This document shows positions 4,640 to 43,461 of a stretch of DNA of 64,000 bases, piece by piece (position 1 is the stretch's first letter; each line of letters begins with the position of its first letter). The notes under the pieces were generated by a model. It saw nothing but the letters and a program-made list of their open reading frames with translations, was not told the origin of the DNA and did no database searches. A program made the position numbers and the translations under genes. The stretch comes from an uncultured Elusimicrobia bacterium (GTDB lineage Bacteria > Elusimicrobiota > Endomicrobiia > DTEH01), in assembly GCA_964508565.1 (NCBI GenBank), contig CAZDUB010000006.1, positions 10,647 through 74,646 of the forward strand, read 5' to 3'.

Positions 4640-5665
4640 ATGTTTGATTTCTTATTTAAACTTTTTTCAAACGATATGGGGATGGACCTTGGTACAGCAA
4701 CTGTTTTGGTGTATGTTAAAGGACAGGGGATAGTCTTGTGTGAACCTTCTGTTGTAGCTATAGATAAAGAGACACAGGAAATATTAGCTATAGGATTAGA
4801 AGCTAAGCGTATGTTGGGCAAAACACCAGCTAATATTGTAGCAGTAAGGCCGTTACGCAACGGCGTTATAGCAAATTTTGATATTACGGAAAAAATGATT
4901 AGATACTTTATACAAAAAGTTCACAACAAAAAAACTTTACTTCATCCTAGGATTGTAATTGGAATTCCCTCAGGTATTACAGAGGTTGAGAAAAGAGCTG
5001 TTAGGGAGTCAGCAGCACAGGCAGGTGCAAGAGAAATATATTTGATTGAAGAACCTATGGCAGCAGCTATAGGCGCAGGGATAGAAATAAACCAACCACG
5101 TGGAAGTATGATTGTGGACATTGGTGGAGGGACTACAGAAGTAGGAGTGATATCTTTAGGTGGTATGGTTGTAAGTAAATCAATTGACATAGCAGGAGAC
5201 GAACTTGATGAAGCTATAATTCAATATTTTAGAAGGAGATATAATCTTTTTATTGGTGAAAATACAGCTGAAGAAATAAAAATAAGAATTGGTTCTGTTT
5301 TTCCATTAGAAGAAGAACTTTCTATGGAAGTAAAAGGTAGAGATCAGGTTACAGGCTTACCAAAAACAATAGTAGTAACTTCTGAAGAGATAAGAGCTGC
5401 CCTTATGGAACCTGTATCTTCTATTATAAGTTTAATAAAAAGTGCACTTGAAGAAACACCTGCTGAGCTTGCTGCAGACTTAGTAGAGACAGGAATAACA
5501 TTGGCAGGTGGTGGTGCACTACTTCGTGGTATAGATAAGTTAATAACAAAAGAAACAGGTCTGCCCACAAGAATAGCAGATGACCCTATCACATGTGTGG
5601 TGCGTGGAACAGGTAAATATTTGGAAGAAATAGATCATATTAAAAGAAAAAAAATGTTTAAATGA
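4640..5665 (+). CDS. mreB: Rod shape-determining actin homologue MreB
   Basis: [38 protein letters not shown]. Confidence 0.98.
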
Positions 5666-6501: not shown

Positions 6502-6990
6502 ATGAAAATGTATAAAGTTGTTATATTTATAACAGTTGTCTTTTTTATTTTAGTGTTTGAAATAATATTTAAAAACATATTACCTTTTTATATACAGCCT
6601 AATTTATGGCTATCATATATTGTTTTTCTTGCCTTATTTATGTCTCACACAGAAGCAGTAACAGGGGGGTTTTTTTTAGGTATTATATATGACACTCTAC
6701 ATCTTACAGTTTTTGGAGTTAATATATTGTTATTTTCTACTATTGGATATATTATGGGTTGGTTTAACAAAAAAATAAACGAAAAATTGTCAAAAGTTCA
6801 AATTTTAACATTGTTTATTGGTAATATGATTTATTATTTAATTATGTTCGTTTTAGTTATCTTTAATGTATGCAATTATAATTTAAGTATCCTAAAGATA
6901 TTATATTCAACCTTGTTGACTGTATTGATAGGATATTTTGAATTGCAAATTTTATACAAATATTATAAAATGAACTCTCTTATATCGTAA
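6502..6990 (+). CDS. mreD: Rod shape-determining protein MreD
   Basis: Hydrophobic 162 aa, QPNL and GFFLGIIYD..FGVN motifs; between mreC and mrdA. Confidence 0.88.
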   Translation: MKMYKVVIFITVVFFILVFEIIFKNILPFYIQPNLWLSYIVFLALFMSHTEAVTGGFFLGIIYDTLHLTVFGVNILLFSTIGYIMGWFNKKINEKLSKVQILTLFIGNMIYYLIMFVLVIFNVCNYNLSILKILYSTLLTVLIGYFELQILYKYYKMNSLIS

Positions 6991-10177: not shown

Positions 10178-12667
10178 ATGGAAAACATTTCTGATTTGTT
10201 AAAGTTAGTATCAAATCCAGGACAGTACATTAATTCTGAATATAATTCAGCGGTAGATTCTATTATTTATAAATGGCAAAAGAAAGATGTCGTAAAAATT
10301 TGTATATGTTATCCTGACAAATATGTAATAGGTATGTCTAATTTAGGAATTGAGATAATTTACAAGTTACTTAACTCATTAGATAATGCTTTATGTGAAC
10401 GCGTTTTTGCACCAGAACAGGATATGGAAGACCTATTATCCAAGACTAATACTGAGTTGTTCTCTTTAGAAACACAACATAAACTTTCGGATTTTGATGT
10501 TATAGGATTTTCTTTACAGCATGAAATGTGTTATACTAACATATTTACGATTTTACATCTTGCCAAAATACCTTTTAAAAGAAAGGAAAGAAAAAACATT
10601 TTTCCTTTAATAATTGCAGGAGGGCATTGTAGTTGTAATTATTCTGTTCTTATGGAATATATAGATTTTTTTGTTATTGGAGAAGCAGAAGATTTTTTAC
10701 CGCAGTTTGTTAATTTGGTTTTTAATTATAAAAGAAAAATTTTAGAAAAAAAAGACGAAAATATTAAATCAGAATTACTTAATGAAATAGATAAATTTAA
10801 GGAAACATTTGTCCCGGAAAACGAAAATAAAAAAGTTTTCCCAGCAGTTGTAGATATAAAGAAAAGTTTTTATCCTTTATCACCAACAGTCCCAACTATT
10901 AGGACTGCTCATCTACGCTTAAATATAGAATTAACTCGTGGTTGTGGCTATAACTGTAACTTCTGTCAAGCTACGTATACCCATAAACCTTTAAGATATA
11001 GGGACAAAGAGTATGTTAAATATATAATAGAACAAAGTTTAAATACTACTGGATATGATGAAATTGCTTTGACAGGATATTGTGTTACTAATTATCCATA
11101 TTTAATAGAAATAATGAAGTTTATTCATAACAAATTTGATAAAAATTATGTATCAATATCTTTACCGTCTTTGAGAATAGAGGATATAAATGAAGAATTA
11201 GTTAGAGAGTTATCGTATCCGAGGAAATCTACAATTACACTTGCTCCCGAAGCAGGTACTGAAAGATTAAGAAAAGTTTTAAACAAAAATATATCTAATA
11301 ACGAGATATTTAATAAAATTAAAATATTGTATAAAAATGGTTTTAAAAAAATAAAGTTATATTTCATGATAGGTTTACCAACAGAAACACAACAAGATAT
11401 AGAATCTATTCCTAAATTGATAAAAGAATTAAAAAAATACTTTCCACTTATTAAGTTTAATGTATCTGTTTCAATTTTTGTTCCAAAACCACATACACCT
11501 TTTCAGTTTGCTAAAATGGATAATTATGAAAGTTTATATAATAAATTAAATTTCTTAATAAAAAATTTAAAGAAAGATATGATTATTGGTTCAGTTAAAA
11601 ATAAAATTTATTCGTCATTTATAGAAGCACTTATTTCTCGCGGTGATAAAAGAATTGGAGATTTGATAGAATCGGTATGGGAAAGAGGAGCAAGGTTTGA
11701 CAATTGGGATGAAAGTTTTAAAGTTGATTTGTGGATTAATGGAATAATAAAAAATAATATAGAGTTAAACGATTATTTATTTACAGAATACTCAGCATTT
11801 GCAAAATTCAGTTGGGATAATGTTGTCTATACTTCTAAAGAGAAACTTTATGAGAGATATAATAATGCTATCCAAGCGTTTGCTCTTAGTTCTTTAGAAC
11901 AGAAAGAGTTACAATTTAGTGAGATTGATATAAGAGGTAATTTCGATAGTGTAGAAACAAGAAACAATACAGAAATAATAAAAAATAAAAACGAAAATCG
12001 TTATACATTGAGATTAAGATTTGCTCGTAAGGGTAAAATTAGATTTATCTCTTATTTTGATCAAATGGAAATCATAAAAAGAACATTAAGAATGTCTAAT
12101 TTACCACTTAGTTACACTCAAGGGTTTAATCCTCAGATTAAACTTTCTTATGCCCCACCTACTTCAATAGGATATGAAAGTGAATCAGAATATGTAGATG
12201 TAGAAATCACAGATTTAATAGATATACATCAAACTATAAAAATAATAAATAAAAATTTGCCACACGGTTTTAGTTTAATGAACGCTAAAATTTTTATGGC
12301 AGAATTGAAGAAAATACCAGCTTTAAACAATGTAGTAAATTTAATAGAATATTTAGTTACATATAGTGATACATTTGCTGTTGAAAAACTTGAGAACTTT
12401 TTTTTAGAGAAAGAAGTAATTGTTGAGAAAGTAAAAAGAACAGGTGTTGATATAATAAACTTGAAAGATCTAATAAAAGACATAAAGATTATAGCTCAAA
12501 ATAAATTACAGCTGTTGTTAAGATTTGGCCCTAACAAGAGTTTAAAACCAGAATTTGTAGTTAGTAAAATTTTCAATATCTCAGAAGAGAATTTATATAA
12601 ATTTGATATCTTAAGAAAAAATTTGTATATAGAAACACCTAATGGAAATATCTTGGAGTTAATGTAA
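10178..12667 (+). CDS. Radical SAM protein (TIGR03960-like) fused to a C-terminal radical-SAM-linked domain (TIGR03936-like)
   Basis: YPDKYVIGMSNLG, RGCGYNCNFCQA (CxxxCxxC), TLAPEAGTERLR, YFMIGLPTE; C-terminal RFARKG..RFIS..D...YTQGFNP..K; usual position after rodA. Confidence 0.85.
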   Translation: MENISDLLKLVSNPGQYINSEYNSAVDSIIYKWQKKDVVKICICYPDKYVIGMSNLGIEIIYKLLNSLDNALCERVFAPEQDMEDLLSKTNTELFSLETQHKLSDFDVIGFSLQHEMCYTNIFTILHLAKIPFKRKERKNIFPLIIAGGHCSCNYSVLMEYIDFFVIGEAEDFLPQFVNLVFNYKRKILEKKDENIKSELLNEIDKFKETFVPENENKKVFPAVVDIKKSFYPLSPTVPTIRTAHLRLNIELTRGCGYNCNFCQATYTHKPLRYRDKEYVKYIIEQSLNTTGYDEIALTGYCVTNYPYLIEIMKFIHNKFDKNYVSISLPSLRIEDINEELVRELSYPRKSTITLAPEAGTERLRKVLNKNISNNEIFNKIKILYKNGFKKIKLYFMIGLPTETQQDIESIPKLIKELKKYFPLIKFNVSVSIFVPKPHTPFQFAKMDNYESLYNKLNFLIKNLKKDMIIGSVKNKIYSSFIEALISRGDKRIGDLIESVWERGARFDNWDESFKVDLWINGIIKNNIELNDYLFTEYSAFAKFSWDNVVYTSKEKLYERYNNAIQAFALSSLEQKELQFSEIDIRGNFDSVETRNNTEIIKNKNENRYTLRLRFARKGKIRFISYFDQMEIIKRTLRMSNLPLSYTQGFNPQIKLSYAPPTSIGYESESEYVDVEITDLIDIHQTIKIINKNLPHGFSLMNAKIFMAELKKIPALNNVVNLIEYLVTYSDTFAVEKLENFFLEKEVIVEKVKRTGVDIINLKDLIKDIKIIAQNKLQLLLRFGPNKSLKPEFVVSKIFNISEENLYKFDILRKNLYIETPNGNILELM

Positions 12668-14665: not shown

Positions 14666-14690
14666 CAGAGTGGAAAGTAGTGTTGTTAAT

Positions 14691-14770
14691 AGTTTGAAGT
14701 ATGGAGTTCGGAGTTTAAAGTTTGTAAAAAATTATTATTTCAACTTTGAATTCAGAACTCTATACTAACA
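14691..14770. repeat. Heptamer-built inverted repeat (hairpin) in the tRNA-His/tRNA-Val spacer
   Basis: Arms 14698-14722 and 14742-14766 match at 21/25 positions (24/25 pair allowing G-U). Left arm is AGTTTGA AGTATGG AGTTCGG AGTTTAA AGTTTGT. Confidence 0.85.
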
Positions 14771-14777
14771 TAAAACT

Positions 14778-29558: not shown

Positions 29559-30356
29559 ATGGAAGTTAAAAAAAGGTTAGATAAAATACTAGTTGAAAAA
29601 AATTTGGCTGATTCTAGGGCTAAGGCTGCCAAAATAGTAAAAGATTTTGGAGTAAAAGTGGACAATGAAGTTGTGTATGACCCATCAAAATTAGTCAGCG
29701 AAGATACAAAGATAGAACTTGTTAAACCCTACGAATATGTGTCTGCCGGTGGTTACAAATTAGAAGGATTGCTTAATAAAAAAATAATAGATGTTAAAGA
29801 TAAAATTTGTTTTGATATAGGTTCTTCAACTGGTGGTTTTGTTGATTGCCTTTTAAGATTTGGTGCAAAAAAAGTTTATTGTTGTGATGTAGGGAAAGAC
29901 CTTTTACATGAAAAGTTGAGAAACAATCCAAAAGTAGTCTTGTTTGAAGGAGTTAACTTTAGATATTTCGTAGAATTAGGATATAAAGAAAAAATAGAAG
30001 ATAAAATAGATATATTTACAGCAGATGTGTCATTCATATCTTTGACAAAAATTATTCCAGTTATATTAAAAATAGCACCATATAAACATATTTTAATTGC
30101 TCTTATCAAACCGCAGTTTGAATGTGAGCCCAAATATGTAAAAAAAGGTATAGTTAGAGAGGAAAAATATCGCCTTCAAGCAGTAGAAAAAATTGTCAAT
30201 TTTTGTAAACAGCTTGGATATAAAAAAAATACTGTAGAAGAATCATTAGTTAAAGGTAAAGAAGGAAATATTGAGTATTTTGGTGTGTTTGAATTTGTAA
30301 GTGAATGTGTTCATTGTTCTAATTTAAAAAGAACCACAAAGTACGCAAAGGCGTAG
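29559..30356 (+). CDS. tlyA: TlyA-family rRNA methyltransferase
   Basis: KRLDKILV (S4 domain), YVSAGGYKL, DIGSSTGGF, DVSFISL, LIKPQFE, GKEGNIEY. Confidence 0.93.
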   Translation: MEVKKRLDKILVEKNLADSRAKAAKIVKDFGVKVDNEVVYDPSKLVSEDTKIELVKPYEYVSAGGYKLEGLLNKKIIDVKDKICFDIGSSTGGFVDCLLRFGAKKVYCCDVGKDLLHEKLRNNPKVVLFEGVNFRYFVELGYKEKIEDKIDIFTADVSFISLTKIIPVILKIAPYKHILIALIKPQFECEPKYVKKGIVREEKYRLQAVEKIVNFCKQLGYKKNTVEESLVKGKEGNIEYFGVFEFVSECVHCSNLKRTTKYAKA

Positions 30357-30675
30357 AAGATTTATGAGAGTAAAAACAAATAGATGTATGAATAAATTTG
30401 TAAAGGCCTTATTTAATATAAGTCCACCTGACTTCTTCTGTGCTCCCTTTGTCTTTTATTTTTTCTCTGTTGTAAAATTAATGAAGTATACCACAAAGGA
30501 CATAAAGACCCAGAGAATTTATGAAAGACAAGAAAGTAAAATCTGTGAATGAGTTTGTTAATGATTCTCTCTACACATTTATTCAACAAATTTTAAGATT
30601 CTCTGTGTTCTTTGTGTCTCTTATATTCTCTGTGGTGAAAAATAACAAACCACAGAGAGTACGAAGACAAAGAGG
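30332..30675. repeat. Two tandem ~158-nt hairpin units with 9-mer arms, plus a third left arm
   Basis: Left arms start at 30332, 30490 and 30648 (ACCACAAAG-GACATAAAG-ACCCAGAGA type). Right arms at ~30432-30473 and 30598-30637 (CTCTGTGTTCTTTGTGTC...CTCTGTGGT). Confidence 0.82.
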
Positions 30676-30679
30676 TTTT

Positions 30680-30759
30680 GTTAGGGTCAGCATATTACTG
30701 AACCTTAACCTTCTATACCCTACACCATTTTATAAATTGTAGGGTTCTGATTTATCAGA
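30680..30759. repeat. Three abutting short hairpins
   Basis: GTTAGGGTCAG/CTGAACCTTAAC with AACCTT x2; perfect ACCCTACA/TGTAGGGT (30717-30745); TCTGA/TCAGA (30746-30759). Confidence 0.75.
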
Positions 30760-30762
30760 CAT

Positions 30763-30874
30763 AGTGAGCAGTTGGTAGCTAGGAGTTGGTAGTAAGTAGT
30801 GATTGGTAGGTAGTGAGGTAAGATATTAACATACTCTGAACTTCCTGCTCCAGATTCCGAACTACAAACTAACT
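30763..30874. repeat. Facing degenerate heptamer tracts
   Basis: Eight AG/GG-initiated 7-mers at 30763-30818 (AGTGAGC AGTTGGT AGCTAGG AGTTGGT AGTAAGT AGTGATT GGTAGGT AGTGAGG). Six ACT-type 7-mers at 30833-30874 (ACTCTGA ACTTCCT GCTCCAG ATTCCGA ACTACAA ACTAACT). Confidence 0.85.
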
Positions 30875-31038
30875 TCCCCTCTATTAAGAGGGAATTAAGG
30901 GGTGTATTACACGAGTTTATTGAGTTTGTTGAATTTATTAAGTTTTCTAGTATAGTGCTAAATCCTAAACCTTTTTGAAAACAGACAACGATAAAACCAA
31001 ACGACCAGATAATCAAACAACTAAACAATCACATAACT
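30875..31038. repeat. GC hairpin, 9-mer tract and 8-mer tract
   Basis: CCCTCT-ATTA-AGAGGG then AATTAAGGGGTGT; GAGTTTATT GAGTTTGTT GAATTTATT AAGTTTTCT (30913-30948); seven octamers AGACAACG ATAAAACC AAACGACC AGATAATC AAACAACT AAACAATC ACATAACT (30983-31038). Confidence 0.8.
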
Positions 31039-31050
31039 GATATTTTAATT

Positions 31051-32451
31051 ATGCAAAACTTATATCGCCAGATTTTTTTCACAACAACAAAATATGTGTT
31101 TTTAAGAAACTTTTTTATGGTAATTACTGGAATTGTAAGCATCTTCATTGTTCGTCTGTTGGGCCCTGAGGAATACGGTAAGTACGCATTAGTTTGGCAA
31201 CTTATAGGAACAATAGGGCCAATACTTTCTTTAGGTTGGCATGCAACTTTAGCAAAGTTTTTACCTGAAAAAGATGAACAAGAGAAAAAAATTTTATTTT
31301 CACAAAGTGTGTTAAGTGTAGCAGTTTTATGTTTGCTTTTCTTACTCATAGGATATATTATAATTCAATTTCTGCCGCAAATAATACCAGCAGAAATAAA
31401 GCAAATAAAAACCTTATTTCTTTTTTTTATATCTTTTGTTGCATTCTTTAATGTGTTTGAAGGTTTTTATAGGGGATTAGGAAAGTTTAACCAGTGGAGT
31501 ATTATTGATGGAATGAGGTCTAATTTGGGAAATTTGTTGGGACTAATTTTTCTAATTTTAGGTTTTCGTATATACAAAAGCATAATATATAGCAATTTTG
31601 CTGTAGCTTTTATTTTTTTAGTTGTTGTTGCTTTTTCATTACGTAATTATTTCTTTTTCACCAAAAACAAAGTTGAGAAAGTAGTTTTAAAATTTGCTTT
31701 AACTATGTTTTTAGGCCAGATAGTTTATCTTTTTATGTCTAGTATAGATTCTGTGATGTTGCGTTCAATACTAAAAGATCCTTCAAAAGTTGGTATATAC
31801 AATGCAGGTATAAGAATTCCTAAAATTATTGAAACGATGTTTATTGCGGTTCTGTCCACACCATTTTTATATTATTTTTCATCACCTGGATTTGCTGAAC
31901 AAAGATTAAAAATACTGGAGTTTAGTAGTAGAATTTTATTTATTTTTTTTGGATTTGTATCATTACTGCTGTTCGTTTTCTCAAAATATATAATATTTAT
32001 TCTATTTGGTAACATCTACAGTGAGAGTATCATAACTTTACAACTTTCAAGTTTAGGTTTGTCGTTACTTGCGTATCTTATATTGTTTTCTGTTTATTTT
32101 ATGTCAATTAACAAGCCAGAAATAGGTACTTTCTTAGGTATAGCTTATTTTTTAATAGTTGGAATGTTGAATTTATTATTTATTCCGATGTTTAAATCGT
32201 ACGGTCCCGCAGTGAGTAATCTTATTGCTTTAGTTGTTTATTGTATTTTAATTTTAGTGATTGTAAAAAAATTAGAGTTTTTTAAAAAATTTTTGTTAGT
32301 TGGTTTATGTATATTTATATCTGTGATGTTTGGATATATTTTTAATCATTTATTATCTCCTGCTATATATCTTCTACTTATTATTTTGTTTAATGTAATC
32401 ACTTTTGAGGAGGGGAAAAAAGTATGGGAGATTATAATTCGCAAGGTTTGA
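31051..32451 (+). CDS. Oligosaccharide flippase (Wzx-like)
   Basis: VRLLGPEEYGKYAL, VGIYNAG, ILFGNIYSES, GPAVSN; 12-14 TM segments; heads a glycosyltransferase cluster. Confidence 0.9.
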   Translation: MQNLYRQIFFTTTKYVFLRNFFMVITGIVSIFIVRLLGPEEYGKYALVWQLIGTIGPILSLGWHATLAKFLPEKDEQEKKILFSQSVLSVAVLCLLFLLIGYIIIQFLPQIIPAEIKQIKTLFLFFISFVAFFNVFEGFYRGLGKFNQWSIIDGMRSNLGNLLGLIFLILGFRIYKSIIYSNFAVAFIFLVVVAFSLRNYFFFTKNKVEKVVLKFALTMFLGQIVYLFMSSIDSVMLRSILKDPSKVGIYNAGIRIPKIIETMFIAVLSTPFLYYFSSPGFAEQRLKILEFSSRILFIFFGFVSLLLFVFSKYIIFILFGNIYSESIITLQLSSLGLSLLAYLILFSVYFMSINKPEIGTFLGIAYFLIVGMLNLLFIPMFKSYGPAVSNLIALVVYCILILVIVKKLEFFKKFLLVGLCIFISVMFGYIFNHLLSPAIYLLLIILFNVITFEEGKKVWEIIIRKV

Positions 32452-33178
32452 ATAAAAACTTTGATTTACATGAAGTAGTATGGGATAAACAAAAAATTAA
32501 AAGGTTATGGGAGTGTTATGAGACGACAGATATTTTTAAAGATGAAAAATTTTGTCAAGCAGATTTTTATGTTAATTTTTTGAAAATATGTAGAAAATAT
32601 TTACCATCTAAAGGTAAAGTGTTGGTTGTGGAGTTGGACGGTTAGTTACATCACTTTATGATTACGGATACGAAGTTTATGCAACAGCTATTTCTGAAAA
32701 GACGGTAAATATGTTAAAGCAAGTATTTTCTGATAAAAATATAATTATAAAACAAGGTGAGATATCCAGAATACCTTTTGAAGATAATTATTTTGATTGC
32801 GTTTTTATAACTGAGGTTTTGGAACACTTAACTTATGATGATCTTTACAGTGGACTACAAGAAATAAGGCGTGTTCTAAAACCTTATGGTAAGTTTGTCA
32901 TCACTGTTCCTTATAAAGAACAATTGCAAAAGATAATCTGTCCTGACTGTAGTGCAATATTTGTCCCATCTCAACATATGAGAAGTTTTGATGAAAATTC
33001 AATGATTTTATTGTTATCACAAGCTGGATTCAGAATAAAATTTTGTAAACTTATGCCTAAAATTCCGTTAACAGGTAATCTCTTTAAAGACCTTGTTAAA
33101 AAAATTTTAGCAAAACTTAATAAAGTAGCAATGCAATTTATGTACGGGAGTATTTTTGTCACTATCGCTGAAAAATAA
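32424..33178 (+). pseudogene. Frameshifted class I SAM-dependent methyltransferase
   Basis: Frame 1 ends ...KGKVL. From 32624 another frame reads GCGVGRLVTSLYDYGYEVYATAISEKTVNM, continuous with track ORF 32711..33178 (FDCVFITEVLEHL). The motif I Asp is missing. Confidence 0.85.
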
Positions 33179-34106
33179 TGAATATTCTTTTAGTTTATCT
33201 CAAACGTAAATGGTCAACTGCCGAATATTTTGAGGAAGCATTTAGAAAATTTGCTGATGTTGATGTTTTTAATTTTGCAGAAACGCCATATTGGAGTGAT
33301 TTTAGGTTTAAATTACCATTTTATATTCCCAAAGGAATTCCTGTATCAGTTAAAAGCGTAATAGAAAAGTTTGATAAAAAATTTGATTTAATTATAGAAA
33401 TAGCAACTGCTGGACAGCACCATCTTGTAGGATATAAGAAGGTCCACAAATTATTTCCTGAAATAAAGAGAATATTTATAGCTTGTGATGTTTACCGTTT
33501 TGACCAGAGAAAATTTATGTTGTGGATAAAAAACGATTTTGATTATATATTTTCTACTCAAAAAATTTTGTGAACATATTTAAACCGGTGCACTCATATT
33601 GGTTGACATATGCTTGTGACACGAAAATACATAAGAAATTTGATTTATCAAAAATTTATGATATTGTTTTTGTTGGCAATATTGACCCGGGTGTTTATCC
33701 TGAACGAGTAAGATTGCTTGAACTTATTGGCAAAAAATTCAACTTGAAAGTCTTTACAAATGTCTATGGTGAAGAAATGGCGAAAATTTATTCTCAAGCA
33801 AAGAGTGTGTTTAATAAATCAGCTGCTGGAGAGATAAATATGCGAATATTTGAAGCAATGTCATGTGGAAGCTTACTTATTACTGATAGGTTAAAGCCAG
33901 AAACAGGACTTGAAGAAATTTTTCAGGACAAAAAACATCTGGTGTTTTATGATAACGAAAATGATTTATTACAAAAAATTGATTATTATTTAACTCACGA
34001 ATCTGAACGAGAAGAGATAGCTTTAGGAGGGTATAAAGAAGTTTTAGAAAAACATACCTATGAACATAGAGTAAAACAATTGTTGGGAATAATTTTGGGT
34101 GATTAA
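33178..34106 (+). pseudogene. Frameshifted glycosyltransferase (CgeB/Glyco_trans_1_2-like)
   Basis: Track ORFs 33178..33573 and 33570..34106 join if one A is added to the A6 run at 33560-33565 (STQK-NFVNIF). The C-terminal half has YDIVFVGN, NMRIFEAMSCGSLLITD, HTYEHRV. Confidence 0.8.
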
Positions 34107-34183: not shown

Positions 34184-34768
34184 ATGAGGTTACCTATTTT
34201 AATCGAGAACGACAGGCTTTTATTCACTTTAAGTGATATCTGCCAAATATTAAGAATAAAACCTTCATCTGTTAAGGTTTTATTATCAAGGTATGTAAAA
34301 AATGGGTATTTAATAAGAATTAAAAGAAATTTGTATATACTTAAAAACAAAATAGGAAATTTGTCAAACGAGGAGAAGTTTATTATAGCAAATATGGTTT
34401 AGGCGCCTTCATATATTTCATTTACAACCGCTTTTTCATACTATGGTATATCAACACAGCTACAGCAAAATTTTATAGAATCAGCAGCAGTATGTAGAAC
34501 AAAAATTATGGGAAACGAATATTTTACTTTCAGATATTTTAAATTGGACAGAAAGTATTATTTTGGATTTATAAGAAAAAACAATTTTTTTATAGCAACT
34601 CCTGAAAAAGCAATTTTAGATAGTTTATATCTTATAGTGTTAGGTAAATATAAACTTGATGCATCAGCAATTGATTGGAGCAAAATTAGTAAGATAAAGC
34701 TTACGAAAATTTTGAAGAAATTTCCTGAAAAAATTAGTAAACTAATTCTAAGTTTATGTAAGATTTAA
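34184..34768 (+). pseudogene. AbiEi-family antitoxin (type IV TA) with one in-frame TAG
   Basis: wHTH-like N-terminus (FTLSDICQIL...LSRYVKNGYLIRIKRNLY). TAG at 34400-34402, then in-frame APSYISFTTAFSYYGI...IATPEKAILDSLYL. Confidence 0.85.
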
Positions 34769-35420
34769 TTAAACAAGAAATTTTTGAGCTAGAAGTTTTG
34801 CAATATCTAAAAAACAAGAAATTTTGGATAATCTAGTATTTAATTGATGGAACAATGTTAAGGTTGTGTTATGATTTGCCAAGATATTCTGTCGATTTAG
34901 ATTTTTGGTTAAAAAGAAGATAAATATAAATAATTTTTATACTCAGAGCATAAACACTTTGCAGGAACGATATTATTTTAACTAATAAACAAAACAAGTT
35001 TTTTACACTACTATTTGAGATAAAATCAAAAGATTATCCAAGAAAATTAAAAATTGAGATAAGAAAAAAATAGTAAGATATGAATTTAAACCCAAGATAG
35101 CATTTTCTAAACACTCAACTACTCAAGTTTTATTAAATTGTTTAAATTTAGACCAAACTATGAAGAACAAAATCCTTACTTTTATTGAAAGAAAAGAAAT
35201 AAGAGATTGTTTTGATATAGAATTTTTGTTAAAAAAAGGTATGGAACTTAAAACTTCAAAGTCAAATCTGAGAAAAATGAAAAATATACTTCTAAAGTTT
35301 AAACCTGTAGATTACAAAGTTACATTAGGTTCTATTTTAGAACCAGAGTTAAGAAAATATTACGAAAAAAATAACTTTGAATTTTTAATCACAAAAATTA
35401 ATGAGTTGTTGAAAGAATAA
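34756..35420 (+). pseudogene. AbiEii-family nucleotidyltransferase toxin, multiply disrupted
   Basis: ATG-TAA at codons 1-2. Fragments in shifting frames: DLIKQEIFELEVL, LDNLVF, DGTMLRLCYDLPRYSVDLDFW, LKIEIRK, KNKILTFIERKEIRDCFDIEF. Confidence 0.85.
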
Positions 35421-35421
35421 A

Positions 35422-36147
35422 ATGAAATATTACAGAGAAAACTATGATATTGACAAAATCTGTCCTTTGTGGGCAGATTATCAGGTTGTGCAAATGATAA
35501 AACCATCTTCAATTATTTTAGAGATAGGTTGTGCAACTGGCTATATTGGAAAGTTTTTGAAAGAAAAAAGAAATTGTAAAATGTATGGTATTGAAATTGA
35601 CAAAGAAGCAGCGAAATTGGCACAGCCATATTATAAAAAAATCATTGTTGGCGATGTTGAAGATGAAAATACTTTATCAACTCTTAACTACGAACTTCCT
35701 ATCATGAACTATTTTGACTATATTTTATGTATGAATGTTTTAGAACATCTTAAAGATCCTAAAAATGTTTTGAAAAATATAAGAAAGTATTTAAAGTCAG
35801 ATGGATATTTAATAATCTGTGTTCCGAATGTCGCACATTGGGCAGTAAGGTTAAGATTGTTATTTGGAGACTTTGGAGATGATAGAAAGATATTTGGTGA
35901 ACATGGTATTGCGGTACTTGATGAAACGCATTTAAGGTTTTTTACATTGAAAAAAATTAAACAATTAATTATAGAGTCTGGATATGACATACTAAGGTTA
36001 ACAATAGATCCTGATAAAGGTATTCCAAAAATACATGGCTTAGTATTAAGAATCCCTAATGGTTGGAAAATACTCAAAGCATTTTATTCTATTTGGCCAA
36101 CACTTTTTGCAGGGCAGTTTGTAATATTAACTAAACCAAGATTTTGA
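35422..36147 (+). CDS. Class I SAM-dependent methyltransferase (sugar O-methyltransferase-like) containing an in-frame heptamer tract
   Basis: ILEIGCATGYIG, FDYILCMNVLEHLKDP, PNVAHW, HLRFFT. Confidence 0.88.
   Translation: MKYYRENYDIDKICPLWADYQVVQMIKPSSIILEIGCATGYIGKFLKEKRNCKMYGIEIDKEAAKLAQPYYKKIIVGDVEDENTLSTLNYELPIMNYFDYILCMNVLEHLKDPKNVLKNIRKYLKSDGYLIICVPNVAHWAVRLRLLFGDFGDDRKIFGEHGIAVLDETHLRFFTLKKIKQLIIESGYDILRLTIDPDKGIPKIHGLVLRIPNGWKILKAFYSIWPTLFAGQFVILTKPRF
35673..35714 (+). repeat. Six degenerate heptamers inside the methyltransferase CDS
   Basis: TTTATCA ACTCTTA ACTACGA ACTTCCT ATCATGA ACTATTT, encoding about LSTLNYELPIMNY. ACTTCCT is identical to 30840-30846. Confidence 0.7.
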
Positions 36148-36166: not shown

Positions 36167-37303
36167 ATGAGCTTGAAAATAGATATTATAACTCCATTTT
36201 TTTATCCAATGGTTGGAGGTGCTGAGACTTATGTTTATGAGTTGTCTACACGATTAGCAAAATGTGGTTATGATGTTACTGTTCATACTTCATTTTTTGT
36301 AAAAGAATCATTCAATTTATCTCAGTTTGAAGTTATTAATGGAGTTAAAGTTTATAGATATAAACCAATATGGAGAAATTATTATTATTACTGGCTTTGG
36401 GTACCAATGATTTCAAAAACAGATGTTTTGCATGTATGCGGTTATGGCCATCTGTGTTTTAGTTTAACAATTTTACGCTACAGTCGTAAATTTCCAATAA
36501 TTTCTACACCAATTGGTGTATCTGCACCTATTGAAGGTCCAAAATCTAGGTTATTAAGAAGACTTTATGATTCTATAATTGGTATAAAACATCTCTCAAT
36601 ATGTAAAAAAATCATAGTTTTAGCAGAAGAAGAAAAACAATGGTGTATAACAAGAGGAATTAAAGAGGATAAAATAATCAAAATTCCAGTAGGAATACCA
36701 GAAGAAGCCTTCTTAATTTATGATCCATCTTTAACAAAACAACTTTATAATTTGGAGAAATATATATTATATGTAGGCCGTATTCATAAAGATAAAGGTG
36801 TAGTTGAATTAGTAAAAGCATTTTCATTAGTTAATGTTGAAGTGTCAGATTTAAAATTAGTATTTGTAGGGCCAGATGACGGTTACAGGGATGAAGTTCA
36901 AAAAGTAGCTACACAGTTAAATATACAAGATAAAATTGTATGGGTTGGGAAGGTGACTCAAGAGGAGAAGTATTTATTGATTTCTAATTGTAAAATTTTG
37001 GTTTTACCAAGCAAATATGAACTTCAGGGAATAGTTTTGGTTGAAGCAATGGCGCAAGGAAAACCAGTAGTTGCTACTAATGTAGGTGGTGTTTCTGATT
37101 TTGTAAAAAACGGATGGAATGGGTTTTTGGTTAGGTATGGAGATGTAGAAAGTTTAGCTGATAAAATTAAGATTTTATTAAGCGACAGCAAAATATATGG
37201 GTATTTATCATACAATGCTAAAAAAACTGCGGAAGAATTTAAATGGGATAAAATTATTGATAGATACGAAAAAATTTATAGAGAGATAGCCACAATTAAA
37301 TGA
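36167..37303 (+). CDS. Glycosyltransferase family 4
   Basis: PMVGGAE, LYVGRI..DKG, LPSKYELQGIVLVEAMAQGKPVVATNVGG. Confidence 0.92.
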   Translation: MSLKIDIITPFFYPMVGGAETYVYELSTRLAKCGYDVTVHTSFFVKESFNLSQFEVINGVKVYRYKPIWRNYYYYWLWVPMISKTDVLHVCGYGHLCFSLTILRYSRKFPIISTPIGVSAPIEGPKSRLLRRLYDSIIGIKHLSICKKIIVLAEEEKQWCITRGIKEDKIIKIPVGIPEEAFLIYDPSLTKQLYNLEKYILYVGRIHKDKGVVELVKAFSLVNVEVSDLKLVFVGPDDGYRDEVQKVATQLNIQDKIVWVGKVTQEEKYLLISNCKILVLPSKYELQGIVLVEAMAQGKPVVATNVGGVSDFVKNGWNGFLVRYGDVESLADKIKILLSDSKIYGYLSYNAKKTAEEFKWDKIIDRYEKIYREIATIK

Positions 37304-38523
37304 AAATAGCATTTAACGCAATAAGAGTATCAAATAAAGCGGGTTCTGGTTTTGATACTTTTATAATTAATTTTATTAATACTTTTGCAAAATATATCTA
37401 CTCTGAATTCCAAACTCCTAACTCTGAATTATATTTCGATGTTTATACTTTATATCCATACCACTTCCCAGAAGTTAAAAAAGAAGACATAAAACATATA
37501 AAAATTCCTTTTTTAAGTTGGAGGCGTAATACTAAGTCTCAAAGGACATCAAATAGTATTGGTAACAAACAACAAACTAAAAAGATTTTTTCTTTCCTGA
37601 CTCCTATCTACTACCTCCTATCTACTATCTACTGCCTTTTCGGTGATTACTTTCGTATGTTTTGGACACAATTTATTTTCCCATTTTATGCTTTAAGATA
37701 CGACTTGGTAATTTCATTAACTGAATATGAAGCATCTGTTTTTTTCTCTAAACGGCAAATAATAATTATGCATAGTGTTGTTTTGTTTTTGTTTAGAAAT
37801 TTCCCTAAAAAATATAAGTTATATGTCTCATTTTTACTACCAGAAATATTAAAAAAATGTAGGAAAATAATAGTTGTATCAGAAACCTTGAAGTCGCAAC
37901 TACAACAGATTTTTAGTATTCCTGAAGATAAAATATTTGTTTTATATGAAGGAGTAGATACACAAAAGTTCAGACCTGCTTCAAAAGAAGAGATATTGGA
38001 GTTTAAAAAAGAATTAAACTTGCCCAACAGATATGTTCTTATGGTTGGACATAGTCATCCAGTAAAAAACTTTAGTCGGATACTGGAAAGTTTTAAGTAT
38101 GTGAAAGAAAAAATACATTGTGAACTTGTAATTGCTGGATATATAGGAAAAAATTTAAAGCTACCTTTGTATGTTAGGTATGTTGGTCATGTGACAAATG
38201 AAAAACTATATTTATTATACTCAGCTGCAGAGTGTTTTGTTTTTGCTTCACTTTATGAAGGTTTTGGTCTTCCACCACTTGAAGCAATGGCTTGTGGCTG
38301 TCCTGTAGTTGTTTCAAATAGTGGTTCATTACCAGAAGTATGCGGTGATGCTGCAATTTATGTTGATCCTTATAATCCAAAAGATATTGCGGAAGGAATT
38401 ATTAAAGTTTTATCTAACGAGACATTACGCCAAGAACTTATCAAAAGAGGTTTTAAACAAATAAAAAAATTTACTTGGGAAAAATCAGCTCAAAGATTTA
38501 TGGAGTTGTTGAAAAATATTTAA
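37300..38523 (+). CDS. Glycosyltransferase family 4 (MtfB/WbdA-like) containing in-frame heptamer tracts
   Basis: [47 protein letters not shown]. Confidence 0.92.
37400..37634 (+). repeat. Three degenerate heptamer tracts inside the GT4 CDS
   Basis: ACTCTGA ATTCCAA ACTCCTA ACTCTGA (37400-37427); AACAAAC x2 (37564-37577); ACTCCTA TCTACTA CCTCCTA TCTACTA TCTACTG (37600-37634). Confidence 0.8.
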
Positions 38524-38568: not shown

Positions 38569-39603
38569 ATGTCTAAAGAAGAAAAACTTAAAGCTTTAAG
38601 TTTAGCTATATCACAAATAGAAAAAGAATACGGTAAAGAAGCAATCGTAAAGCTTGGTGAAAAGAAAAAACTTGAAGTAGAAGTTATACCAACAGGGATT
38701 TTATCTTTAGATTTAGCTTTAGGAGTTGGAGGAGTACCTAAAGGAAGAGTAATAGAAATCTTTGGTCCAGAAGCTTCTGGAAAGACAACCTTAGCTTTAA
38801 CAATTGCTGCTGAAGCACAAAAGCAAGGTGGAATAGCAGCAATGATAGATGCAGAACATGCTTTTGACCCAAATTTTGCAAAAAAATTAGGAGTGGATGT
38901 AGAAAATCTCTATGTTTCACAACCTGATTATGGAGAACAGGCTTTAGAAATAGCGGAAACACTTGTTAGAAGTGGGGCAGTAGATGTTGTTATAGTAGAT
39001 TCTGTTGCAGCGCTTGTTCCTAAAGCTGAAATAGAAGGGGAGATGGGAGAAGCACAGATCGGTCTACAAGCACGACTTATGTCTCAAGCATTAAGAAAGC
39101 TTACTGCTGCTGTAAGCAAATCCAAATCAATTATAATATTTATTAACCAAATTAGACAAAAAATAGGAGTGATGTTTGGTTCTCCTGAAACAACAACAGG
39201 TGGTTTAGCATTAAAATTCTACGCTTCTGTGAGATTAGAGGTAAGAAAAACAGATATTATTCGAGTAGGCGATGAAGTTGTAGGATATTGGGTTAAAGTT
39301 AAAGTTGCCAAAAACAAAGTAGCCCCTCCTTTTAAAGAAGCTACATATGAATTTTATTTTGACAGCGGGATAGATAGGTTGGGATGTTTATTAGATGTAG
39401 CGGTGGAGGAAGGTATAATAGAAAAAGCAGGTTCTTGGTATACTTACAAAAACGAAAAATTAGGGCAAGGAAGGGAACAAGTAAAGAATTACTTAAAGTC
39501 TAATTTAGAATTAGCAAAAGAAATAGAGTCTTCTTTAAGAGCTAAGTTTAATATTCAGCAAACTTCTGCAGTAGAAGAAAAACAACAAGAAAAGAAAAAA
39601 TAA
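38569..39603 (+). CDS. recA: Recombinase RecA
   Basis: [49 protein letters not shown]; AGGAGG RBS. Confidence 0.99.
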
Positions 39604-41562: not shown

Positions 41563-43461
41563 ATGTGTGGTATTTGTGGGATAGTAAATTTTAACACATT
41601 ATCTATAGATCAACAAAAATTAAAAAAAATGTGTGCTGTTTTGTTTCATAGAGGGCCGGATGAAGAAGGCTTTTACTTTGATAGCCAAGTGGGATTTGGA
41701 ATGCGTCGTTTAGCAATAATAGATCTTATAACTGGACACCAACCAATTCATAACGAAGAACAAACAGTTTGGATTATATGCAATGGTGAAATTTACAACT
41801 TCTTGGAACTTCGTAAAGAACTTGAGATAAAACATCATAAGTTTTATACAAACACAGATGTGGAAGTAATAGTCCATTTATATGAAGAATACGGAATAAA
41901 TTGTGTTAACTACCTAAGAGGAATGTTTGCTTTTGCTTTGTGGGATAAAAAAATAAAAAAATTGTTTTTGGTAAGAGATAGAATTGGTAAAAAACCTTTA
42001 TTTTATTGTTTTAGAAACGGAATGTTACTTTTTGCTTCAGAAATAAAGTCTATACTTGAATACTTAGATTCTACTCCTGAAATAAATCTAAATGCAATAG
42101 ACTATTTCTTAACTTATCAGTATATCCCTCAACCTATAACAATTTTTAAGGATATATACAAACTTCCAGCCGCTTCATATATGGTTTGTGATATGAAAGG
42201 CAACTATCAGATAAAAAAATATTGGGAGGTTGATTTTAGAAAAAAATTAAACATTAGCTTTGAAGATGCAAAATACAAAATAAAACAAATTTTAACTGAA
42301 GCTACAAGGTTACGATTAATAAGTGATGTCCCAATAGGTGCTTTCTTATCTGGTGGACATGATTCAAGTATAATAGTTGGGTTGATGGCTGAGAATTTGC
42401 AACAGAAGGTAAAGACATTTTCTGTTGGATTTAAAGAGCAGAATTTTTCAGAATTAAGATATGCTAGAATTGTAGCAAAACATTTTGGTACTGAACATAC
42501 AGAAATAATTGTAGAACCAAATATGGTAGAAATCTTGCCAAAACTTGTTTGGTTTTATGACCAACCATTCGCGGATACATCAATGATCCCATCCTATTAT
42601 GTGTCAAATGTGACAAGAAAATATGTCAAAGTTGCATTAAATGGTGATGGAGGAGATGAAAACTTTTGTGGATATTTAAGATATCAAGCTATGAAATTGG
42701 CTTCGTTATTTCCATTTGAAGTTTTTGACAGCAGCTTATATGTTACATTAAGCAAACTTATTCCGAATCTAAAAGTTTCTTTTATAAAAAACAAACTTAG
42801 ATATTTTAAAAGGTTTCTTACAGCTTTAGGATATCCAACTCCAACAAGACAAGTTATTTGGCATTGTTTTTTTACTAACGAACTTAAAAATTTTATATAT
42901 TCTAGATATATGAAAGAAAATGTAAAACAAAATGTTTATAACTATTTGATTGATACATATTATAAAGCAAAAGCTTATGATATAATAGACAAAATTTCTT
43001 ATATAGATATTAACACATATCTACCAGAGGATTTACTTGTTAAAATGGATATCGCTTCTATGGCAAATTCACTTGAAGCGCGTTCACCTTTTTTGGACCA
43101 TGTTTTATTTGAGTTTACAGCACAAATCCCATCTAACTGGAAGCTGAAATATGGATTTAAAACGAAATATATCTTAAAAGAAGCATTTAAAAATTTTTTA
43201 CCAAAAGAAATAATAAAAAGACCAAAACAAGGTTTTGGACTTCCTATTAGTAAGTGGTTAAAAGAAGATTTAAAAGAGTATGTTAAAGATATATTGTTTT
43301 CTGAAAAGTTTGCAAAAAGAGGGTTATTTGAACAAAAAAAAGTTGAATTTTTAGTAAACAGGCACTTTTCAGGAAAAGAAGACCATGGATATAGAATATT
43401 TGCTTTAATAGTTTTAGAGTTGTGGTTTAGGGTATATATTGACAAGGAGATAAAATTTTAA
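41563..43461 (+). CDS. asnB: Asparagine synthase-like glutamine amidotransferase (polysaccharide-associated AsnB)
   Basis: MCGICG, HRGPD, CNGEIYN, RDRIGKKPL, FLSGGHDSS, GDGGDE, SLEARSPFLD. Confidence 0.93.
   Translation: MCGICGIVNFNTLSIDQQKLKKMCAVLFHRGPDEEGFYFDSQVGFGMRRLAIIDLITGHQPIHNEEQTVWIICNGEIYNFLELRKELEIKHHKFYTNTDVEVIVHLYEEYGINCVNYLRGMFAFALWDKKIKKLFLVRDRIGKKPLFYCFRNGMLLFASEIKSILEYLDSTPEINLNAIDYFLTYQYIPQPITIFKDIYKLPAASYMVCDMKGNYQIKKYWEVDFRKKLNISFEDAKYKIKQILTEATRLRLISDVPIGAFLSGGHDSSIIVGLMAENLQQKVKTFSVGFKEQNFSELRYARIVAKHFGTEHTEIIVEPNMVEILPKLVWFYDQPFADTSMIPSYYVSNVTRKYVKVALNGDGGDENFCGYLRYQAMKLASLFPFEVFDSSLYVTLSKLIPNLKVSFIKNKLRYFKRFLTALGYPTPTRQVIWHCFFTNELKNFIYSRYMKENVKQNVYNYLIDTYYKAKAYDIIDKISYIDINTYLPEDLLVKMDIASMANSLEARSPFLDHVLFEFTAQIPSNWKLKYGFKTKYILKEAFKNFLPKEIIKRPKQGFGLPISKWLKEDLKEYVKDILFSEKFAKRGLFEQKKVEFLVNRHFSGKEDHGYRIFALIVLELWFRVYIDKEIKF

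Follow-up and report, generated by a model that had tools for sequence, protein, structure and literature searches.

Can a repeat with a unit of seven nucleotides lie inside the coding sequence of a glycan enzyme, and if it does, is it a recent invader, a switch or an ordinary part of the protein? This question is raised by a stretch of 64,000 nucleotides (hereafter the window) from an uncultured Elusimicrobia bacterium (GTDB lineage Bacteria; Elusimicrobiota; Endomicrobiia; DTEH01; GenBank assembly GCA_964508565.1, contig CAZDUB010000006.1, positions 10,647 to 74,646 of the forward strand). A sequence-only reading of the window had seen three heptamer tracts, here named A, B and C, in a GT4 glycosyltransferase gene, and had proposed that a selfish repeat had colonised the gene three times and was generating new protein loops or switches in glycan enzymes. 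The reading frame is intact, as that reading had stated, and its translation gives the tract peptides it had quoted, all of them in the N-terminal domain. The number of arrays in the gene is two and not three: tracts A and C are real, significant and similar to arrays in intergenic DNA, whereas tract B is a coincidence. The sample comprised these 64 kb of the source genome and about 20 related loci. The features of the gene are the following.

37300..38523, forward strand: GT4 (GT-B fold) glycosyltransferase gene, 407 residues, intact (open reading frame (ORF), Pfam, homologues, AlphaFold2, Foldseek)
37400..37434, forward strand: tract A, ACT-register array ACTCTGA ATTCCAA ACTCCTA ACTCTGA ATTATAT (profile score, counterpart in the orthologous locus L001)
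37498..37638, forward strand: subfamily-specific hypervariable segment, about residues 67-113 (alignment A1, AlphaFold2, orthologue DNA)
37564..37577, forward strand: tract B, AACAAAC twice, encoding N89-T93 in a disordered basic linker (chance level, outside the repeat family)
37600..37637, forward strand: tract C, G-poor and C-rich array ACTACCT CCTATCT ACTATCT ACTGCCT, following ACTCCTATCT (Tandem Repeats Finder, lag-7 score, profile, codons)

Heptamer arrays inside and outside the gene

The strongest periodic signal of the window is that of tract C. Tandem Repeats Finder reported it with a period of 14 (1.9 copies, 100% identity) and with a period of 7 (4.3 copies, 82% matches); perfect adjacent copies number at most about two (2.1 for the 7-mer, 1.9 for the 14-mer). 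Its information-weighted lag-7 score of 32.3 is the maximum of the window, and its lag-14 and lag-21 scores are also the highest. In 100 dinucleotide shuffles the lag-7 maximum averaged 13.8 +/- 3.5 and never rose above 22.6. The other lag-7 signals of the window come from two intergenic sites, the spacer between the tRNA-His and tRNA-Val genes and the region 30762-30874.

Taken as a self-repeat, tract A does not exceed chance: its lag-7 score is 11.3, and each shuffle yields about 1.6 sites of that strength. The window has 14 nearby repeats of 10-mers, where shuffles give 6.3 +/- 2.7. The similarity of the coding tracts to the intergenic arrays was evaluated with a profile of 7 columns, trained only on the four intergenic arms, with which runs of four in-phase units were scored throughout the window. 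Outside the training sites only three matches reached at least 20 bits: tract A at 37400 (26.7 bits, the top match), an array at 35680 in a methyltransferase gene (20.3 bits) and tract C at 37610 (20.1 bits, in the ACT register); the next match was below 14 bits. In dinucleotide shuffles the maxima averaged 14.1-14.3 with an extreme of 21.4, and matches of at least 20 bits are expected at 0.01 per shuffle. Tract B is not distinguishable from chance, since perfect two-copy heptamers occur 11 times in the window and 9.2 +/- 3.0 times in shuffles, and it is not present in L001.

The window thus contains five array sites, three of them coding and two intergenic. The sites outside the GT4 gene are the following.

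35680..35707, forward strand: array ACTCTTA ACTACGA ACTTCCT ATCATGA, encoding TLNYELPIMN, in the methyltransferase gene 35422-36147 (profile 20.3 bits)
30762..30874, forward strand: intergenic array pair upstream of a gene for a Wzx-like flippase (sequence, repeat family D2 with spacings of 14 and 21, lag-7 and lag-14 scores)
14680..14770, forward strand: inverted heptamer array pair in the tRNA-His/tRNA-Val spacer (lag-7 score 18.5, strong hairpin, tRNA calls)

Both intergenic sites follow a single register, ACT plus four nucleotides or its reverse complement, four nucleotides plus AGT. Upstream of wzx, the first arm (30762-30824) is in the AGT register (TAGTGAG CAGTTGG ...) and the second (30833-30874) in the ACT register (ACTCTGA ACTTCCT GCTCCAG ATTCCGA ACTACAA ACTAACT). 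The unit ACTCTGA at 30833 recurs twice in tract A, at 37400 and 37421, as had been pointed out from the sequence. The same reading had likened tract C to the reverse complement of the tract at 30763, and this holds at the level of the repeat unit, for ACTACCT is identical in both while ACTATCT and ACTGCCT correspond to ACTATGT and ACTGCTC; it does not extend to a contiguous BLAST match. Searches (word size 7) with the 5' region of the GT4 gene and both intergenic repeat regions returned chance-level matches only in the window, and we therefore regard the arrays as a family of similar units and not as copies of one element. Likewise, neither the window repeat search nor BLAST revealed an inverted-repeat structure in the tracts or dispersed near-identical copies of them.

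The tRNA spacer (14667-14776) folds into a stable RNA structure (-29 kcal/mol, z = -4.94; none of 200 shuffles was equally stable), and this hairpin may be a processing site or a terminator made from the repeat family. For the region 30750-30890 a hairpin was considered and rejected, the fold being unstable (z = +0.87). Rfam gave only the tRNAs at the gathering threshold and nothing credible in 30300-31100 at E <= 1. The tlyA-wzx spacer (30357-31050) is 695 bp long in the window and measures 63, 93 and 263 bp in L001, L021 and L022, respectively. It also holds direct repeats (30437-30478 and 30602-30643), a hairpin (30624-30661) and a G+C-rich stem (30875-30894), and the corresponding spacer of L022 carries palindromes similar to repetitive extragenic palindromic (REP) sequences.

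All three coding arrays of at least 20 bits lie in the glycan locus, in two genes, so that in the window the periodicity is not equally common in all genes and this refutation, named in the sequence-only reading, fails. The locus makes up about 18% of the 56 kb of coding sequence, and the enrichment proposed in the sequence-only reading is suggestive only, since it concerns two genes in 64 kb. The idea that ACTCTGA is special in viral contigs was rejected, as (ACTCTGA)x3 gave 7 matches against 16 and 45 for controls of the same composition; a protein search with six copies of SEFRVQS, which (TCAGAGT)n encodes, gave only 51 tiny domain-free ORFs and was of no use for the question of enrichment.

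Tracts A and C in the enzyme and its orthologues

The GT4 gene lies in a surface-glycan locus that includes the gene for the Wzx-like flippase (31051), methyltransferase genes, three more glycosyltransferase genes and an AsnB-like amidotransferase gene (41563). The gene recA (38569-39603) is also located inside this locus, closely 3' of the GT4 gene, with more glycan genes beyond it in the longer loci. This GT4-recA arrangement, seen in the window, is kept in all examined relatives with enough flanking sequence (L001 and L020-L023), and the gene order of the locus is also found in L001, L021 and L022. The G+C content of the window is 25-36%, and the genome is Endomicrobiia-like (28% G+C). Protein scans with GT4 yielded only two informative Endomicrobia loci from the genome collection and 7 from metagenomes; its homologues are annotated as GT4- or GT1-family glycosyltransferases from Endomicrobiia or Elusimicrobiota metagenome-assembled genomes.

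All the features of a retaining GT4 enzyme of the GT-B fold that were looked for were found: a fold of two Rossmann domains, a C-terminal Glycos_transf_1 domain (PF00534, residues 232-386, 121.9 bits), a GT4-type N-terminal domain (Glyco_transf_4, PF13439, residues 116-222, 41.1 bits) and the EX7E motif (E320-GFGLPPL-E328), both glutamates of which are invariant in alignment A1 of the window protein with 29 homologues. The match of PF13439 to the N-terminal domain is partial because of the inserted segment described below. The AlphaFold2 model, calculated with 103 sequences as input, has a mean pLDDT of 92.4 and a pTM of 0.89, and Foldseek related it to MshA (3c4q), GlgM (6tvp), PglA (8dqd), BshA, WaaG and PimA (E values of 1e-14 to 1e-21).

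In this model, tract A encodes Y34-Y45, that is, the end of helix 17-36 and the alpha1-beta2 surface loop preceding strand 45-50, and alignment A1 shows this loop to be 4 residues longer in the window protein and in its closest orthologue P0002 than in most homologues. Tract C encodes T101-L113, the N-terminal part of helix 101-131, and leaves the protein no longer or shorter here than its close homologues. The proposal of new protein loops, and the expectation that alignment and AlphaFold would map the inserts to loops, are accordingly supported for tract A and not for tract C, which is the start of a helix.

Tract C forms the end of a hypervariable segment that consists of a polybasic low-confidence linker followed by the aromatic helix start. 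This segment is missing in generic GT4 enzymes (P0053, P0061, P0106) and is present with similar length and very variable sequence in every close homologue. Residues 71-100, which include tract B, have pLDDT values of 50-63 and contain 7 K/R and no D/E; the helix 101-131 (31 residues) is aromatic at 12 of 31 positions and holds a signature of 10 residues specific to the subfamily. Judged from their composition, the basic linker and the aromatic helix may form a putative membrane-interface module on the acceptor side.

The comparison was most informative for L001, the syntenic locus of P0002 (64% protein identity to the window GT4). At the position of tract A, L001 has ACTCTGA ACCCCGA ATTCTTG ACTCTGG ATTCCAT, and at that of tract C it has ACTATAT ACTACAT ACTCTCT ACTGCCT; for tract C, the DNA alignment of the two loci is gap-free with 31 of 40 nucleotides identical, and the peptide is conserved as well (TPIYYILHTLYCLF against a counterpart of 14 residues in P0002). 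The methyltransferase gene of L001 has ACCCTTA ACTCTGA ACTACCA ACTACAA at the matching position, and the protein is 5 residues longer in the window and L001 than in L021, at the array. Since arrays occupy orthologous positions in proteins of 64% identity, they predate the split. The word 'colonised' in the sequence-only reading is thus not supported in the sense of a recent insertion; tracts A and C are old inherited parts of the protein.

In other relatives the tract C position was read from the 45 nucleotides before the conserved motif (A/G)DYFRMFW. Period-7 arrays are found there in the window, L001, L092 and L005. Six loci (L011, L012, L014, L015, L020 and L021) carry G-free arrays of period 8 instead, with units such as TCATCYAC in L011, CTTTCTCA in L012 and three perfect copies of CTTTTTCA in L014, and no periodicity was observed at this position in L003, L016, L093 and L023. 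In L005 a further array, which runs the other way (TCATAGT TCGCAGT TTATAGT TCACAGT TTGAAGT), lies where the segment starts. An origin of the whole inserted segment from an inverted array pair, hinted at by L005 and by the intergenic sites, was considered and rejected, as its 5' part in the window contains no AGT-register array.

The segment of L022 contains a different element, namely an in-frame insertion of 21 nucleotides (SIPQIAG) with a palindrome of 19 nucleotides, ATCCCGCAAATTGCGGGAT (10277-10295). An identical intergenic copy is located at 6516-6534, between tlyA and wzx, and two variants at 5545 and 6642; a Y1_Tnp transposase gene, similar to REP-associated tyrosine transposase (RAYT) genes, lies close by (4902-5384). 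Inserts of the SIPQIAG type also occur in P0009, P0014, P0015, P0017 and P0025. The presence of such varied small repeats in one segment indicates that it is a hotspot that accepts several kinds of repeats. The borders of the segment coincide exactly with ends of three metagenome contigs (the end of L017 and the starts of L018 and L019), which is consistent with strain heterogeneity or with assembly breaks induced by repeats, and the start that gene callers then assign to P0028 and P0036 is the M inside MFWTQF. A separate observation concerns P0023, P0025 and P0026: in alignment A3 their N-terminal ~120 and C-terminal ~100 residues are nearly identical to the P0003 clade while the middle ~170 residues are divergent, which points to mosaic recombination within the gene.

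Arrays of the same kind occur as clean in-frame insertions in another gene of the locus. The AsnB-like gene contains four to five copies of GTTCAGA, the reverse complement of ACTCTGA, in L021 (14934-14968) and L022 (15694-15728), and these encode SEF(G/R)VQSSEF, 10 extra residues in a loop after GPDEEGYY. The copy in the window (41563-43461) does not have this 10-residue array and L001 has a degenerate version of it (about 14800). The part of the sequence-only reading that placed the heptamer repeats in glycan enzymes was therefore correct, as the family is translated in frame in the acceptor-side domain of GT4 (tracts A and C) and in the methyltransferase, and in relatives also in the AsnB-like protein.

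Codon usage and unit structure of tract C

Tract C is encoded by codons that are rare in the window (ATC 6%, TAC 18%, CTC 2%, CTG 3%, CTA 7%, TGC 15%, TTC 11%), and 8 of its 15 codons end in C, compared with 7.8% window-wide. Its codon log-likelihood is -44.0 against -19.9 for the null, and none of 20000 synonymous re-encodings was as atypical. Atypical codons are likewise found at this position in L001, L021 and L022 (P <= 2e-4), whereas the array-free orthologues use common codons; the codons of the methyltransferase array at 35680 are also atypical (P = 0.017). Where a rare codon encodes a conserved residue, the same codon is found in L001 at 8 of 11 positions among residues 100-119, compared with 100 of 496 over ten gene pairs (P = 2.5e-4). 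In this first test of synonymous conservation the higher conservation of the 5' third of the gene was a confounder, and the test was repeated against local flanks of the same gene; the difference was still significant but weaker, 8/11 against 2/11 (Fisher P = 0.015). These comparisons indicate that the constraint acts on the DNA and not on the peptide alone.

The units also seem to have changed together. At the seventh position, each of the five window units has C, but those of L001 have A,A,A,C,C, and the 14-mer duplication, perfect in the window, has 9/14 identity in L001. This position-7 pattern would be expected from concerted evolution between units, and such marks of homogenisation could also reflect selection on the nucleic acid. 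It is important to mention that ACTCTGA contains TGA when read forward. In all coding arrays the intact units are placed with TGA out of frame, and units in the forbidden frame are altered, as in ACCCCGA of L001.

Origin of the arrays and their meaning

We favour, with slightly better than even confidence, the explanation that the tracts are arrays of short repeats peculiar to the lineage, which change through slippage and inter-unit conversion and which glycan enzymes have tolerated and co-opted in their permissive parts. The lineage would carry a family of tandem arrays in whose 7-nucleotide unit ACT is followed by four bases, mostly pyrimidines; ACTCTGA is its archetype, and relatives also have 8-nucleotide variants. 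Such arrays would arise and stay homogeneous through replication slippage and conversion between units. Non-coding arrays could persist freely; coding arrays would survive only where the protein tolerates extra or variable sequence, where the length gained or lost is, in sum, divisible by three and where in-frame TGA units have been mutated. In GT4, tract A supplies the alpha1-beta2 surface loop and tract C the first 13 or so residues of the aromatic helix 101-131. A G-free pyrimidine-rich unit read in its three frames can encode only L/I/F/Y/H/S/T/P, and would therefore give a hydrophobic peptide with a period of 7 residues whatever the frame. Different arrays would be accepted at the tract C position because the site needs bulk hydrophobicity and not a specific sequence. 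The mechanism of slippage and conversion, the membrane role and the history of toleration followed by co-option are what we infer from these comparisons.

Several points weigh against this explanation. No slippage or conversion event was seen directly among the handful of sequences compared, and local slippage alone does not explain the presence of ACTCTGA at several unlinked sites. Tracts A and C have no clean insertion boundary, and their derivation from arrays is judged from periodicity, unit similarity and codon usage. For the test of rare-codon conservation the region was chosen after inspection and n = 11; in addition, the 5' third of GT4 is more conserved at the nucleotide level, and recombination could inflate synonymous conservation. 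The membrane interface is deduced from composition and from the behaviour of enzymes of the PimA/WaaG type, and the frequency of the family and its bias to glycan genes are judged on 64 kb of the genome.

If pre-formed heptamer arrays had moved into the gene as mobile selfish elements, in the manner of Rickettsia palindromic elements or REP sequences, the recurrence of one unit at unlinked sites would be explained: ACTCTGA occurs at two intergenic and several coding sites of the window and its relatives, among them the window GT4 gene and 30833, and in relatives the GT4, methyltransferase and AsnB-like genes. The clean length gains at the AsnB-like and methyltransferase arrays, the roughly 630 bp of additional repeat-laden DNA between tlyA and wzx in the window compared with L001, and the dispersed palindrome that L022 carries in frame in the same GT4 segment, near a Y1 transposase gene, argue in the same direction. 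However, BLAST found no dispersed copy above chance in the window, where the similarity is confined to the units, and the window arrays have no terminal repeats, target duplications or associated transposase. Tract C brings no length change, both coding tracts (A and C) are ancient, with orthologous counterparts in place, and the presence of period-7 and period-8 arrays at one site fits local turnover better than repeated invasion; the comparable TAACTGA repeats have no known mechanism of mobilisation (PMC4679880). We consider such transposition unlikely. The idea of a switch, that is, of a contingency locus turned on and off by slipped-strand mispairing as in Neisseria pglE, draws on the position of a 7-nucleotide unit at codons 100-113, in the 5' third of a GT4 gene of a glycan locus, on the differences between lineages in the array at this site, and on perfect runs in relatives (CTTTTTCA three times in L014, GTTCAGA four times in the AsnB-like gene of L022). 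Heptanucleotide phase variation of pglE is documented (PMC7157529), the three contigs that break at the segment edges suggest strain heterogeneity, and a neighbouring glycosyltransferase gene of the window is frameshifted at a poly-A run, from A7 to A6. Yet a long perfect run was not found in the window, where at most two perfect 7-mer or 14-mer copies are adjacent; the window and L001 are collinear with unchanged copy number in spite of 36% protein divergence; the AsnB-like arrays of L021 and L022 have equal length and differ by one substitution; and the P0003 clade, of roughly 90% identity, varies by substitutions and by indels of 18-21 nucleotides and not by whole octamers. Among about 30 homologues there was no out-of-frame allele or difference in unit number, in a protein database that favours intact ORFs. 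Since there are few copies, these are imperfect and every allele seen was in frame, phase switching is quite improbable, and the switches postulated from the sequence find no support in the copy numbers, which are stable between relatives.

The codon data raise the possibility that the C-rich, G-poor tract is retained for a function as DNA or mRNA, either as a cluster of rare codons that would slow translation during the emergence of the N-terminal half-domain or as a series of heptamer-spaced sites for a regulator that binds single strands. Its codons are extremely atypical and are conserved between the window and L001, the composition is also kept in the 8-nucleotide arrays of other lineages, and the related arrays upstream of wzx and in the tRNA spacer can have a role only as nucleic acid; it has been proposed that proteins of the Csp/S1 type bind to heptamer repeats (PMC4679880). 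Against it, L003, L016 and L093 have neither the array nor the rare codons, which are therefore not required by the enzyme family; a translational pause needs no periodicity of 7 or 8 nucleotides, and the array pair upstream of wzx has no Rfam match or significant fold. We regard this role as very doubtful. It is more improbable still that no repeat family exists and that selection for a heptad-like hydrophobic peptide (xxIYxLx twice) produced the DNA periodicity by coincidence. The window and L001 share the conserved peptide TPIYY(L/I)L(S/H)T(I/L)YCLF, part of which is also kept in P0022, the segment is helical, and tract A alone is not significant as a self-repeat, but a peptide repeat of 7 residues does not demand identity at a spacing of 7 nucleotides. 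The codons used are rare ones and not those that mutation bias and peptide selection would give, a profile built from non-coding arrays picks out three coding ones where 0.01 are expected, and arrays of the same unit form insertions in unrelated proteins.

A bolder form of the array explanation, to which we assign a small chance only, holds that the arrays are still-active concerted DNA elements that remodel the membrane- or acceptor-facing side of Endomicrobiia glycan enzymes, possibly with rare frameshift switching, and that they are focused on surface glycans. Together with this, and with the same small chance for the whole, their hydrophobicity in any frame and their period of 7 residues (a heptad) would make them a ready source of amphipathic helices and loops, that is, of repeat-driven protein innovation.

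Further irregularities of the glycan locus lie outside the arrays. The glycosyltransferase gene 33178-34106 is split into ORFs of 131 and 178 residues, compared with a single gene of 309 residues in L021; the cause is one missing A in the run 33560-33565 (A6, against A7 in L021), and this could be a genuine frameshift, in a pseudogene or by slippage, or else a fault of the assembly. The methyltransferase gene 32424-33178 has a deletion of 7 nucleotides (about 32625) in the SAM-binding motif I relative to the intact gene of L021 (6506-7243), and the part 3' of the deletion runs on in another frame. Three short ORFs (72-86 residues) at 34184-35420, between glycan genes, are not found in the syntenic L001 and L021 and may be remnants of an inserted gene pair.

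Returning to the tolerated and co-opted arrays that we favour, several known systems can be compared with them. Rickettsia palindromic elements and the REP/RAYT system are small repeats inserted in frame in permissive parts of proteins. The window tracts differ from these in being tandem direct repeats of 28-38 nucleotides without a palindrome or identical dispersed copies; the 19-nucleotide palindrome in the 21-nucleotide insertion of the L022 GT4 gene, with its inverted-repeat structure and dispersed copies, is a true example of that type, by a different element. The short tandemly repeated repetitive (STRR) heptamers of cyanobacteria (Calothrix, Nostoc) are lineage-specific tandem heptamers, some of them inverted, with G/C-rich units, heterocystous hosts and a mainly intergenic location. 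Several of their units have an AGT/ACT anchor (CCCCAGT, CAACAGT), which can serve as a lead only. The arrays described here resemble them in being tandem, lineage-specific and in some cases inverted, but the window genome is not cyanobacterial. In Neisseria, a heptanucleotide repeat in the ORF of the glycan glycosyltransferase gene pglE is read in three frames and controls on/off phase variation (PMC7157529), whereas the arrays described here have 2-5 imperfect copies and keep their length from one relative to the next, and none of the alleles seen was OFF.

The closest parallel in kind is given by the TAACTGA repeats of Beggiatoaceae, some Cyanobacteria and Bacteroidetes, which occur in sets of 2-6 copies at many sites (MacGregor 2015, PMC4679880). 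These are mostly intergenic, with sets mainly just upstream of start codons, and have no known mechanism of spread; one orientation contains stops in all three frames, whereas reverse copies inside ORFs are read in three frames as LSVISYQ; one such copy is located in an RNA polymerase beta-prime-like protein, where it belongs to a variable surface loop (PMC4679880). As in that family, tandem arrays of a 7-nucleotide unit are found here at many sites and are translated at some of them. The differences are the degenerate ACTCTGA-like unit, the other phylum and the larger coding share (three of the five window sites, conserved in orthologues); the 8-nucleotide variants and the signature of atypical codons are not described for TAACTGA. 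According to the summaries in PMC4679880 and PMC4692102, long simple sequence repeats (LSSR; Mrazek et al. 2007) are most abundant in prokaryotes as heptanucleotides, with a sporadic distribution across phyla, and polymerase slippage with a footprint of about 7 nucleotides is proposed as their cause. Units whose length is not a multiple of three are reported to be rare in coding regions, whereas here they are translated and retained across orthologues.

A tandem periodicity of 7 nucleotides above chance and a similar unit at several unlinked sites were both found, as in a heptanucleotide family, and the units of the window (ACTCTGA, ACTACCT, ACTATCT) match none of the described ones (TAACTGA, STRR1-3, GGGAATC, GGGGAYT). 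As there is no identity of units, the arrays are the same kind of repeat and not members of those named families. No report of heptanucleotide repeats in Elusimicrobia or Endomicrobium was found in the open-access literature searched. Heptanucleotide LSSR, with an occasional location inside ORFs, are a known kind, to which the window adds a unit, a phylum and a larger, conserved coding component.

Non-triplet repeats in genes are usually seen as deleterious or as switches, whereas here they are apparently ordinary conserved protein sequence that still bears the marks of a repeat at the DNA level, namely periodicity, rare codons and concerted changes across units. In practical terms, such tracts break metagenome assemblies and can mislead gene callers. 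If the pattern holds genome-wide, it would provide a concrete case of simple repeats creating and diversifying protein segments in an uncultivated phylum, and it would flag the acceptor- or membrane-facing part of glycan enzymes as a place that tolerates them.

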